Notes under the pieces: generated by a model
What the model was told of the DNA's origin: nothing
Seen by the model: only the letters and a program-made list of their open reading frames with translations
Databases searched by the model: none
Sequence record: NC_079184.1
Reading direction: 5' to 3' (one strand)
Source of the DNA: Escherichia phage vB_EcoM_DE15
Length of the DNA: 53,998 nucleotides
Shown here: piece after piece, positions 14,676 to 16,196 of the stretch
Layout of the letters: each line of letters begins with the position of its first letter
How positions within the stretch are numbered: position 1 is the first letter of the stretch
Position numbers and translations under genes: made by a program

Positions 14676-15014
14676 ATGGCTAAGATTGTAACCGTAACTC
14701 AGTACGAAGCTAACGATGGTTCCCTGTTCCTGACCGAAGCAGAGTGTAATGCACATGACTTCAAACTGGAAAACGGTGCTAAAATTGAGAAAGCTGCCGA
14801 AGCGTACCTGAACACCGTTGGCGCTATCGACCGTTCTCGCTCCATGCAGAAGAACACCATCGAGCAGTTCCTGGCATTCTACCTGCCGTGGGTTGAAGCT
14901 GGTGAGCCGGAAGTTGAGCGTACTAAGTTCGATACTCCGAAAGAAGCTAAAGTTGCTGACGCAAGTGTTGCCGAAGCTGCCGAAGCTGCTGTTGAAGAAG
15001 CTCCGGTATTCTAA
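14676..15014 (+). CDS. Acidic Ala/Glu-rich protein (112 aa), function unknown
   Basis: Strong ctg/cgt/gaa codon bias suggests high expression. Net charge about -10. Has its own promoter. Confidence 0.7.
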   Translation: MAKIVTVTQYEANDGSLFLTEAECNAHDFKLENGAKIEKAAEAYLNTVGAIDRSRSMQKNTIEQFLAFYLPWVEAGEPEVERTKFDTPKEAKVADASVAEAAEAAVEEAPVF

Positions 15015-16104
15015 GTTGCCGATGGCAAACTTGAGAGACTAAGCTAAATCGATCTGGCATGCACTGGAAGATTTCCGGTGCTGCCTTGAACCCATTCTGA
15101 AAGGAAGAGTGGGCTTCAATGAGCATTCTTGTGATTAGAGTTGGGAGGTAGGCCGATGCCCAAGCTCATGGCCCAGACAAGAGTGTTCATTGAAGTTACT
15201 TCAATATGGATTGTCGCCAAGTTGTGGAAGGACGTGCACACAGATTTAACGAAGAAAAGTAACAGCCTGAGAACTGTGAAAATTTCCCGTTATGTCGTGG
15301 GGAAGTGCACCATAGCTTGGGTTCTTCACGTAGATATTACTCAGATATTTGCGGCTCGCTGAATGTGAGCATCCATATTGAAGTAGTTTTCTGAGTCTTA
15401 CGACGGGCCTAAACTGCCTGAAGTTATTGCGACTGTTTTATTCATTTAAAATAAATGCAAATGATTCTGAAATGCGAGTTGCGGCTTAATTAAATTTAAG
15501 TCCTCTCCGTGGTCTTCCAATCCCACGTAACCAAATTTGGCGCATTGTGGCTTCGAGATGTGATTAATAAATCGGAGCAATAATTAATTTGTATTCTGCG
15601 ATGCAATGCAGGCTTAAGTCCCTCAGTGCGCGTGGGGATGTGACAGAGTACAAACTTAATTATGCAGTTGGATATTTCTAGAGGACGGACGAGCACACTG
15701 GAATGTCTTCAATTGGTTTAGTGTGAGAAGCTATGCCAATATGAAACGTAACTCCTTGGGGAAGTGCTCCTCTGGATTTCCCTCCACACAGGAATCTCAA
15801 GCCTGTGGCAGCGACTTCGAAGCTGCACTGCGTAACCTAAATTCACCCTAAAGTGAGTTGCCCTGAGTATGGAAATAAACTGCTCATAACCGATGGTATC
15901 TACAAAGGTAGATTAAATCAGGTTGCCTGTTGGTACTTGGGTTCAACACCTGCTTGCACTCGCAAAGTAGTGCCTCGTACCTGAGATGAAGTGAGTCGGG
16001 ACCATCAATCCCACGTTATGTCAAAACACAGTAGGCGGCTCACGGATTCTACAAGCCTCGCAGTTCGGGAAAACCTGCGTTATCAAAACCCCCCTCTTTT
16101 ATTT
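15015..16104 (+). ncRNA. ORF-free structured island 2 (candidate large ncRNA(s))
   Basis: No credible ORF. Many hand-foldable hairpins. The 11-mer CAATCCCACGT occurs twice (15518, 16006). Degenerate promoter cores at 15463-15485 and 15666-15675. Confidence 0.3.
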
Positions 16105-16196
16105 GGACGAGTAGCTCAGAAGGTTTGCATTGTGCTCAGTCAGGTAGAGCAATCTGTTCGACAGATGTGTCGTTGGTTCGAATCCAACCTCGTCCA
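16105..16196 (+). tRNA. Aberrant tRNA-like gene (possible pseudo-tRNA or tRNA mimic)
   Basis: 7/7 acceptor pairing GGACGAG/CTCGTCC, T-arm GTTGG-TTCGAAT-CCAAC and D-arm GCTC-AGTCAGGTA-GAGC. There is a ~20-nt insertion after a duplicated GCTCAG. The anticodon arm is only 15 nt (ATCTG-TTCGA-CAGAT). The 3' end is ACCCA. Confidence 0.45.

Follow-up and report, generated by a model that had tools for sequence, protein, structure and literature searches.

A widespread phage RNA that appears to derive from tmRNA and to encode a tag, yet lacks a recognisable tRNA-like domain

What does a phage encode in a kilobase that holds no sizeable gene? The question is raised by Escherichia phage vB_EcoM_DE15 (NC_079184.1), of which we analysed a stretch of 53,998 nucleotides (nt), here called the window, and in particular by its island at 15015-16104. 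A first-pass annotation had described this island as free of open reading frames (ORFs), bordered by an aberrant tRNA, and possibly one large structured RNA. No ORF of 80 or more amino acids (aa) is indeed present on either strand of 15015-16098, a gap of 1084 nt that is second in the window only to 12043-13273, but shorter ORFs exist (mechanically called frames of 73 aa at 15141-15362, 71 aa and 66 aa), so that the island is not strictly ORF-free. The window belongs to Carltongylesvirus (Chaseviridae, phiEcoM-GJ1-like), and about 1.7 kb around the island is 96-99% identical to the Escherichia phages JL1, TH53, ST32, SA91KD and phiEcoM-GJ1 of this genus, myoviruses with a T7-like RNA polymerase. 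Our main finding is that the centre of the island carries what appears to be a widespread, unannotated and tag-encoding derivative of transfer-messenger RNA (tmRNA, the ssrA product) without a tRNA-like domain (TLD).

Conservation beyond the genus is restricted to about 140 nt of the island (15429-15570), with 82-86% identity by sensitive blastn in Chaseviridae of Erwinia, Pantoea and Aeromonas, and this stretch also matches unannotated DNA of unrelated phages, namely Ackermannviridae, N4-like and T1-like genomes. In the relatives it opens ...AUAAAU GCA AAC GAU... and specifies the tags ANDDVVLMAA and ANDDVILMAA (each followed by two stop codons) and ANEEVYLAVA and ANDNEMRAAA (followed by one). 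The tag of E. coli tmRNA is ANDENYALAA. The corresponding frame of the window is likewise ssrA-like, comprises ten codons with the stop at 15487, and has the tmRNA-type context AAAUAAAU (15449-15456) directly 5' to it. The first-pass annotation overlooked this apparently tmRNA-derived module and took part of its coding sequence for a promoter: the supposed promoter core TTCTGAAA...AGTTG (15463-15480) is codons 3-8 of the tag ORF (GAT TCT GAA ATG CGA GTT).

The identity of this element, hereafter the core, as a tmRNA derivative is well supported by homology searches. A covariance model (R1) of 48 relatives, from which every Chaseviridae sequence was left out, gives a single match in the window, on the plus strand at 15412-15580 (81.7 bits, E=2.5e-18), and one site at each of the other Chaseviridae loci (E from 1e-22 to 1e-26); on E. 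coli ssrA it gives a weak match at about nt 80-187, which includes the tag ORF (15.6 bits, E=0.02). Pairwise alignment suggests that the core is colinear, at weak similarity, with E. coli ssrA over about nt 3-250; the shared span opens at the end of the acceptor 5' strand and the D-loop region (GAU-AGUUUUCG..GCGAC against GAUUCUGGAUUCGAC), takes in the tag and closes with the counterparts of pseudoknots 2 and 3. The tmRNA models of Rfam, among which the best, sub-threshold match is to RF04321 (permuted tmRNA), cover no more of the core than the resume context, tag and helix 5 (model positions 83-140) and match nowhere else in the window.

Coding statistics were compiled from 127 copies with 45 distinct ORF sequences. 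The tag is exactly ten codons long and followed by a stop in 127/127 copies and 45/45 distinct ORFs, whereas the two non-tag frames of the 127 copies are irregular and vary in length. Entropy at codon positions 1, 2 and 3 of the distinct ORFs is 0.62, 0.57 and 1.08, the third being about twice the others, and the invariant last alanine is written with all four codons (GCT 17, GCC 17, GCG 10, GCA 1). Twenty tags occur among the first 127 copies; they start with AND or ANE, and their commonest ends are MAA, AVA, VAA and AAA. As a control, the DNA pattern matched 45 sites in 185,579 bacterial species representatives: the six with the core motif GGCGCA/GACGCA, all from Enterobacterales, have a ten-codon tag, and the 39 without this motif have none. 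The codon-level signal thus says that the tag is in all probability decoded.

The structure downstream of the tag was evaluated on a 57-sequence alignment, with the helix at the ORF end and two H-type pseudoknots set by hand. Of the cells in these helices 95.4% are paired, compared with 31-45% when the partners are slid by 1-3 columns, and 154 cells have changes on both sides compared with 46 in shuffles, a count exceeded in 0/500 shuffles. All four pairs of the outer helix around the stop codon have changed on both sides across the family. Pseudoknot A, whose stem 1 is the hairpin CGTGG/CCACG named at first pass (15508-15512 with 15523-15527), has 99.3% and 99.6% of cells paired and both-side changes in six of its nine pairs, stem 2 occurring as CCAA/UUGG, CCAG/CUGG, CCGA/UCGG and UCGA/UCGA. 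In pseudoknot B the variable pair of stem 1 is C-G in 33, G-C in 13 and U-A in 11 sequences, and stem 2 is preserved through at least eight different complementary sequences. The comparative covariation analysis proposed with the first-pass annotation is therefore positive for the central module, and the two H-type pseudoknots downstream of the tag are strongly supported as predicted structures. No covariation-supported counterpart of the upstream pseudoknot 1 of tmRNA was found, and no counterpart of pseudoknot 4. Compensation is strand-specific, with G-U pairs among the changes, so that the element would act as RNA.

Table 1. Coordinates of the core and of the other features of the island and its border (positions in the window)
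Feature	Position	Strand	Basis and details
Putative tmRNA-derived core RNA	15384..15583	+	5' domain from UAGUUUUC, resume context, tag ORF, stop-codon hairpin, two pseudoknots
Tag frame	15457..15489	+	sequence; GCA AAT GAT TCT GAA ATG CGA GTT GCG GCT TAA = ANDSEMRVAA-stop
Stop-codon hairpin	15485..15500	+	sequence; CUUAA-UUAAAU-UUAAG, counterpart of tmRNA helix 5
Pseudoknot A	15508..15540	+	stem 1 15508-15512/15523-15527; stem 2 15517-15520 (CCAA)/15537-15540 (UUGG)
Pseudoknot B	15541..15578	+	stem 1 15541-15546/15557-15562; loop 3 AUUAAUAAA
Pseudoknot B stem 2	15550-15556 with 15572-15578	+	GCUUCGA with UCGGAGC
GC-rich hairpin	15056..15085	+	GGCAUGCACUGGAAGAUUUCCGGUGCUGCC; 42 nt past stop of acidic gene; terminator-like or processing hairpin
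Chaseviridae hairpin	15091..15113	+	minimum-free-energy fold; CCCAUUC/GAGUGGG, variable loop
Helix A	15114-15132 with 15177-15195	+	minimum-free-energy fold; 19 bp
Helix B	15196-15211 with 15371-15386	+	minimum-free-energy fold; long-range, 16 bp, central 12 bp CUUCAAUAUGGA/UCCAUAUUGAAG
Variable segment	15584..15848	+	no demonstrated function; about 15660-15845 missing from SA91KD (L001)
Conserved Chaseviridae 3' module	15858..16090	+	compensatory changes in at least two helices
3' module hairpin	15864-15869/15881-15886	+	loop UGGAAAUAAAC
3' module closing helix	15991-15997/16037-16043	+	
3' module hairpin	15998-16012	+	loop CCAUCAA
3' module hairpin and motif	16059-16063/16075-16079	+	followed by UUAUCAAAAC (16080-16089)
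tRNA gene	16105..16196	+	Rfam RF00005, 45.2 bits against a threshold of 29; D-region insertion of about 20-23 nt

The core is widely distributed. A pattern scan of IMG/VR returned at least 120 loci, and the lambdoid version of the core matches 518 of 50,697 phage records at E <=1e-8, about 1% of sequenced phages, with at least 80% of the core covered in 333 of the 518. The carriers are mostly Salmonella, Escherichia and Klebsiella phages and appear to span Vi01-like Ackermannviridae, FelixO1-like, N4-like and T1-like phages, the P22-like HK620 and the P1-like P7; on the chromosome the core is present in 142 of 5,426 complete E. coli genomes (2.6%). The annotation beneath the matches is almost always 'none', Rfam 15 finds nothing at the core loci of the relatives, and the full-text literature searched, with tag peptide strings among the queries and the P1 genome paper outside its coverage, holds no description of the RNA family. 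Known prophage small RNAs (sRNAs) were rejected as identities of the core, as svsR sits at the 3' end of the cI repressor gene, and the Pas sRNAs and STnc100, which lie near the holin, have intrinsic-terminator stem-loops (likely Hfq-binding); the papers on these sRNAs do not mention tmRNA.

The expression context of the core varies among these families. T1-like copies have a near-consensus sigma-70-like promoter (TTGACA-17-TAGATT) about 10-15 nt upstream, and Ackermannviridae copies a sigma-70-like promoter (TTGTCA-17-TATAGT) about 75 nt upstream. The copies of HK620 and an E. coli 55989 prophage are placed in the Q-dependent late leader, with the late promoter pR' (or the antiterminator Q gene) on one side and the holin gene on the other, and in HK620 the core precedes the annotated terminator tQ. 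In P7 it is part of the C1-controlled tRNA/ban operon with tRNA-Asn and tRNA-Thr; this copy has the tag ANDDLMMAAA and a diverged second pseudoknot. Directly upstream of the core stand an intrinsic-terminator-like hairpin, GCCCAUCUUCGGGUGGGCGUUUUUU, in P7 (locus L178, 1462-1486) and a tR'-like terminator in the 55989 prophage (L127, 3377-3412), and core expression in P7 and the lambdoid prophage may therefore depend on read-through or antitermination. One Chaseviridae-like IMG/VR contig of 53 kb (L028) encodes a Phd/YefM antitoxin and a ParE_toxin (PF05016; Pfam E-values 1e-7 and 2e-12) directly after the core, +211 to +750 nt from the tag start; should this toxin be a relative that cleaves mRNA, its activity would yield substrates for trans-translation, and the position is suggestive.

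The remainder of the island bears out the earlier proposal of a large structured RNA beside a tRNA in that it is non-coding, structured and in tRNA context, but not in that it would be one giant ornate RNA of the GOLLD or ROOL type: because its blocks are deleted, replaced, reordered or interrupted in relatives, the island is, as judged by these comparisons, a mosaic of structured RNA modules. SA91KD (L001) lacks about 15660-15845, GJ1 carries other sequence in place of about 15100-15375, other Chaseviridae have the modules shuffled or parted by protein genes, and the central module is found alone in unrelated phage families. The Rfam search suggested at first pass returned no family above threshold except tRNA, with GOLLD and ROOL among those covered. 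Protein coding in the island was also set aside, as the short ORFs (<=73 aa) match no PHROG, the 73-aa ORF matches no Pfam family and none of them is conserved between close relatives, even in GJ1. A phage promoter inside it was likewise discarded. The phage promoter consensus AACATTAGTTGGAT has an exact copy at 14580 and no site within three mismatches in the island, and the second promoter core proposed earlier, AGTTGGATAT (15666-15675), has only its 3' 8-mer in common with this consensus.

On the 5' side the island adjoins the acidic gene 14676-15014, which is gp29-like, strongly expressed and a member of PHROG 17419 of unknown function. The site equivalent to the GC-rich hairpin that follows is annotated as a rho-independent terminator in SA91KD. 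The Chaseviridae hairpin is common to the window, Y2, Faunus, SSEM1, pEa27, phiA050, L028 and L043, and its stem has a compensatory change in L043 (CCUCAUUC/GAGUGAG). Helix A encloses a conserved block, GGGAGGUAGGCCGAUGCCC...UGGCCCAGAC (about 15143-15178), that stands at other positions in Faunus/L103 and SSEM1. Helix B, the 3' strand of which ends at the start of the core's UAGUUUUC, encloses a domain of about 160 nt including a hairpin with a conserved CCUGAGAA loop (15264-15281), and in other genera its strands have changed together, CUUCUGGAUGA, CUUCAAUGAACA, CUUCUGUUUGGA and CUUCAAUAAGCAC each pairing with their own 3' partner. The fold of 15088-15392 (-119 kcal/mol, z = -7.5) is far more stable than chance, and that of the 3' quarter of the island (z = -0.5) is unremarkable.

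Long hairpin modules likewise border the core in other phage families, with stems GGUAAGAGCA.../...UGCUCUUUCC or, in N4-like phages, CUAUCAAUGAGUACAC/GUGUACUCUUUGAUAG, and with variable and often tRNA-like tips. In L004, L082, L092, L094, L127 (3420-3500 and 3669-3740), L178, L179 and many other loci such modules form arrays around the core and ahead of tRNA genes; the module stems are kept (CACAAC-AGGUAAGAGCAUUG ... CAGUGCUCUUUCC-GUUGUG, with a conserved U-U mismatch) and the tips are highly variable (26-176 nt), often ending in a T-arm. Modules of a second type, GUGGUGAAUGCG...GCCGGAGAUCAGCACCGGCCACCACAAC, appear to combine an acceptor-stem-like helix with two hairpins, between whose loops a kissing interaction is conceivable (GCUGA/UCAGC). 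A hammerhead-like CUGAnGA...GAAA motif in some of the flanking inserts was not confirmed by Rfam and was dropped.

Downstream of the core, the variable segment holds a weak promoter-like AGTTGGAT (15667-15674), the hairpin GCAGC/GCTGC (15809-15827) and, at about 15612-15628, the tag-end echo GCAGGCUUAAGUCCCUC. Some 130 nt past the original, the tag end and its hairpin recur in degenerate form at 15612-15640 (GCAGGCUUAAGUCCCUCAGUGCGCGUGGGG against GCGGCUUAAUUAAAUUUAAGUCCUCUCCGUGG), which looks like a partial internal duplication. All three hairpins named at first pass are where they had been placed; that at 15809-15827 lies in a segment missing from close relatives, and CGCAG/CTGCG (16059-16063 with 16075-16079) is kept across Chaseviridae genera. 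The repeated 11-mer CAATCCCACGT is equally real, with exactly two copies, at 15518 and 16006, where 0.06 are expected, the second sitting in a different conserved hairpin with the loop CCAUCAA. Homologues of the 3' module, with compensatory changes, occur in phiA050 (GUUAGCG/GCGCUAAC; GAGG/CCUC), Faunus (AUUGGC/GCCAAU; GGG/CCC) and L043. In L043 and phiA050 protein genes stand between this module and the core, so that it is probably a separate RNA.

The tRNA on the 3' border is aberrant, as had been noted. Its insertion lies between position 9 and the normal D arm (GCUCAGAAGGUUUGCAUUGU and GCUCAGUCAGGUAGAGC), amounts to 23 nt in the Rfam alignment, so that the D arm is not of canonical size, and differs in sequence and length among 97%-identical phages (SA91KD, L061). 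ARAGORN calls the gene Leu(CAG) and the GJ1 record Arg(UCG), 'may contain an intron'; position 3:70 is A-U, so that the alanine identity pair is absent, and the anticodon stem can close to a 5-nt loop. Many relatives have tRNAs near the core, and tRNA-like elements are always near it, on either side and at variable distance. The tRNA-like genes of Y2 (L006, about 2850-2965), Faunus (L129, about 1863-1947) and L096 (directly after the core) have an unusual D arm (UCUGACU...AGUCA), no normal anticodon arm and no G3-U70, and are missed by ARAGORN; that arm is replaced by a hairpin of about 25 bp in Y2, Faunus has an 11-nt loop, and L096 has a large insertion and an encoded UCCA end. A second ORF-poor island of the window, 12275-13029, has three phage-promoter-like sites (12343, 12484 and 12621). 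At about 12650-12730 lies a tRNA-like element, missed by ARAGORN and Rfam, with a closed 12-bp stem (AAGAGCUUUGUA/UACAAAGCUCUU), a cloverleaf-like interior and a canonical T-arm (GAACG-UUCGAUU-CGUUC); modules with a 'UAAGAGC' stem, which border the core in other phages, are similar to it.

The core RNA thus appears to be derived from tmRNA, yet the TLD by which tmRNA is defined is not found with it. In canonical trans-translation the template is linked, covalently or helically, to the TLD via the anticodon-side helix. Several results weigh against a functional template here. No base-paired link from the core to a TLD was detected, ARAGORN reports no tmRNA in the window or in 127 extended loci, and the Rfam models of tmRNA, permuted tmRNA and alpha-tmRNA, at E up to 10, align no columns of the tRNA domain; the core also falls far short of the Rfam thresholds (20.8 bits with RF04321 and 6.1 bits with RF00023, threshold 47). 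Complement searches and regex scans found no T-arm with a strand behind it that could pair with the 5' end of the core RNA, and a scan for G3-U70-type acceptors found no nearby tRNA-like element with that pair. Predicted duplexes with E. coli tmRNA were no better than shuffled controls, and a consensus scan of the island at three or fewer mismatches identified no promoter for the window's copy. Part of the tag ORF, moreover, lies within a helix, and the codon pattern could partly reflect constraint on the RNA. In keeping with these points, alignment to tmRNA shows no counterparts in the core of pseudoknot 4, the 3' strand of helix P2, the T-arm or the acceptor 3' strand, and the search for a P2 3' strand among complements of the 5' domain returned only the upstream long-range helices and chance matches.

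Several candidates for the missing part were rejected. Pairing of the core with host tmRNA was dropped on its duplex energies, which are at the level of the shuffled controls. The hairpin 15091-15113 with the helix CUUCAAU/AUUGAAG, considered as a permuted TLD, has no T-loops, CCA or G3-U70. The 3' hairpin 16059-16079 with UUAUCAAAAC, considered as an acceptor piece, would form only 5-6 bp with GUUUU at the core start, and is further ruled out by its 3-nt spacer, the absence of CCA and the lack of compensation in the pairing. Flanking 'module A' helices do not serve as a counterpart of P2, as their outer stems covary within the module and not across the core (HK620), and pairing of the D-loop insertion UUUGCAUU of the tRNA with the resume region AAUGCAAA is contradicted by SA91KD and L061, where the insertion is not conserved.

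On balance we consider it probable that the island is a phage non-coding RNA cluster whose centre is a tmRNA homologue cut down to its messenger half and serves as a template for SmpB-dependent tagging, a function we favour because of the codon-level signal together with the retained upstream context, which is consistent with frame setting as in trans-translation. Release of the core RNA from a longer transcript would take place at the long, very stable helices 5' to it or, in other phages, at the flanking tRNA-like hairpin modules, likely by RNase III or by processing of the RNase P/Z type; we infer that the flanking modules are processing signals. During lytic growth the RNA would then act as an alternative template for SmpB-dependent trans-translation, and the products of stalled ribosomes would gain a phage-specified degron of the ClpXP type. 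The aminoacylated tRNA-like entry function would have to be supplied from elsewhere, by the host tmRNA-SmpB machinery or by a neighbouring phage tRNA-like RNA as a separate piece. This is the weakest step, and the main weakness of the proposal. More tentatively, and with somewhat less than even confidence, the core may represent an overlooked phage RNA family that supplies the template half of tmRNA only and reprogrammes ribosome rescue through host SmpB and stalled ribosomes, be it as a new kind of split tmRNA with a separate phage tRNA-like partner or as a template delivered in trans; its carriers would be P1/P7, HK620-type lambdoids, Vi01-like, N4-like, T1-like and FelixO1-like phages and Chaseviridae.

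The chief rival, in our estimate an unlikely one, is that the core is a decoy or inhibitor, an untranslated mimic that binds SmpB, S1, RNase R or vacant ribosomes and so blocks or retunes host trans-translation. The lack of a TLD in the core would suit such a role, as would the retained upstream frame-setting context, in which pairwise alignment sets GCGAC against UCGAC of the tmRNA D-loop region. That a phage tmRNA can be partial has a precedent in mycobacteriophage DS6A, and tmRNA was inhibited in E. coli by expression of a comparable TLD-only molecule (PMC4131195, PMC11915505). A decoy, however, needs no exact frame of ten codons, stop at codon 11, Ala-Ala or Val-Ala end and synonymous third positions, all of which are present in 45/45 distinct ORFs. 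Slightly less probable again is the view that the whole 1.1 kb is a single large ornate RNA, GOLLD- or ROOL-like, forming a unit beside the tRNA. Many conserved helices, long-range pairings, the very stable 5' third and the tRNA-adjacent phage context speak for it; set against these are the lack of any Rfam match to GOLLD, ROOL or another large RNA, the deletion, replacement and reordering of blocks in relatives or their separation by protein genes, and the occurrence of the core without the other blocks in other families, several times with a sigma-70-like promoter or a terminator-like hairpin close by.

Far less credible is a DNA-level element, such as an origin resembling the primary origin of T7, in which AT-rich DNA comes after phage promoters, or a promoter/terminator cluster, or else a set of unannotated small protein genes. 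The T7-like RNA polymerase that is encoded and the AT-rich stretches after the supposed promoter cores would fit the former, and the small hypothetical ORFs annotated here in records of relatives the latter. Yet the 'promoter core' is the tag ORF, the island has no consensus phage promoter and the strand-specific compensation with G-U pairs points to RNA, while the short ORFs are unconserved between close relatives, have no PHROG and, for the 73-aa ORF, no Pfam family. At the bottom of the scale we place a functionless remnant, a host ssrA fragment decaying after recombination or imprecise excision. Fragments of ssrA are known in phage and prophage genomes (PMC9004378), and a blastn search of phages with E. 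coli ssrA does turn up captured ssrA genes in full length and att fragments of the 3' end, but never the core family. The core, moreover, corresponds to the middle of tmRNA rather than to its 3' att end, occurs in phage families that are strictly lytic, displays covariation and purifying selection at the codon level with no random disruption of the frame in relatives, and was matched by no bacterial tmRNA among the 185,579 species representatives. The signals of selection and the failure of ssrA blastn to find the family lead us to exclude a dead ssrA fragment.

A template for SmpB-dependent tagging, as we favour, would have consequences beyond this island. The core family offers a handle on ribosome rescue and ClpXP-type proteolysis during phage infection, and it connects to the dependence of some lambdoid hybrids on ssrA, which has long been known and is unexplained. 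HK620 and P1/P7 are tractable models in which the question is directly testable. If tmRNA indeed acts only with its domain and template combined, a new partner RNA is still to be found. In annotation, a covariance model of the family would allow hundreds of intergenic regions of phages and E. coli that now look 'empty' to be filled.

Comparison with known systems places the core apart from each of them. It has in common with GOLLD and ROOL the phage context, adjoining tRNA genes, tRNA-like neighbours and pseudoknotted or long helices, and differs in that no such model matches (Rfam 15 at gathering and E-value thresholds gives only tRNA and chance-level matches), in the modular and variable make-up of the island and in a tag ORF that is read as translated. 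Captured ssrA genes and 3' ssrA fragments at attP are near-identical to the host gene, whereas the core is a diverged and independently evolving middle part. The tmRNAs known from phages are either complete genes of one or two pieces, detectable by ARAGORN, or the TLD-only gene of DS6A (PMC4131195, PMC9004378, PMC11915505), and truncated forms are expressly rejected by the tmRNA database. Thus the Bxz1-like mycobacteriophages and Bacillus phage G have complete tmRNAs that ARAGORN detects, unlike the core, and DS6A keeps the TLD without a tag, the opposite half to the core (PMC4131195). The coding piece of two-piece tmRNA (Alphaproteobacteria, Cyanobacteria and some marine phages; RF04321) is, as the core would be, a separate tag-ORF RNA excised from a longer precursor (PMC11915505, PMC9004378). 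Permuted tmRNA genes place the acceptor piece (T-arm, acceptor 3' strand, CCA) immediately upstream, with the acceptor 5' strand at the start of the coding piece. The core does not show this gene order: 22 nt replace the 108-nt tRNA-domain segment of the model, T1-like and Ackermannviridae relatives have a promoter where the acceptor piece should be, and the hairpin 15091-15113 is a 7-bp stem with variable, non-T loops and no CCA after it.

The closest likeness is to one-piece tmRNA (ssrA, RF00023). In both, GCA comes after an A-rich resume context, the ten-codon tag has ANDx at its start and, at its end, Ala-Ala behind a hydrophobic residue (ANDENYALAA in E. coli), the stop codon lies in a hairpin (helix 5) and H-type pseudoknots follow the ORF. 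The core differs in its length of about 180-200 nt, in the absence of acceptor stem, T-arm, CCA end, G3-U70 and the closing helix P2, in an uncertain counterpart of pseudoknot 1 and in being missed by ARAGORN. tmRNA is thought to act only as one molecule, or as two pieces joined via the acceptor stem and helix P2, in which a chargeable TLD and its template are united. A conserved and evidently translated tag template without a TLD would challenge this view.

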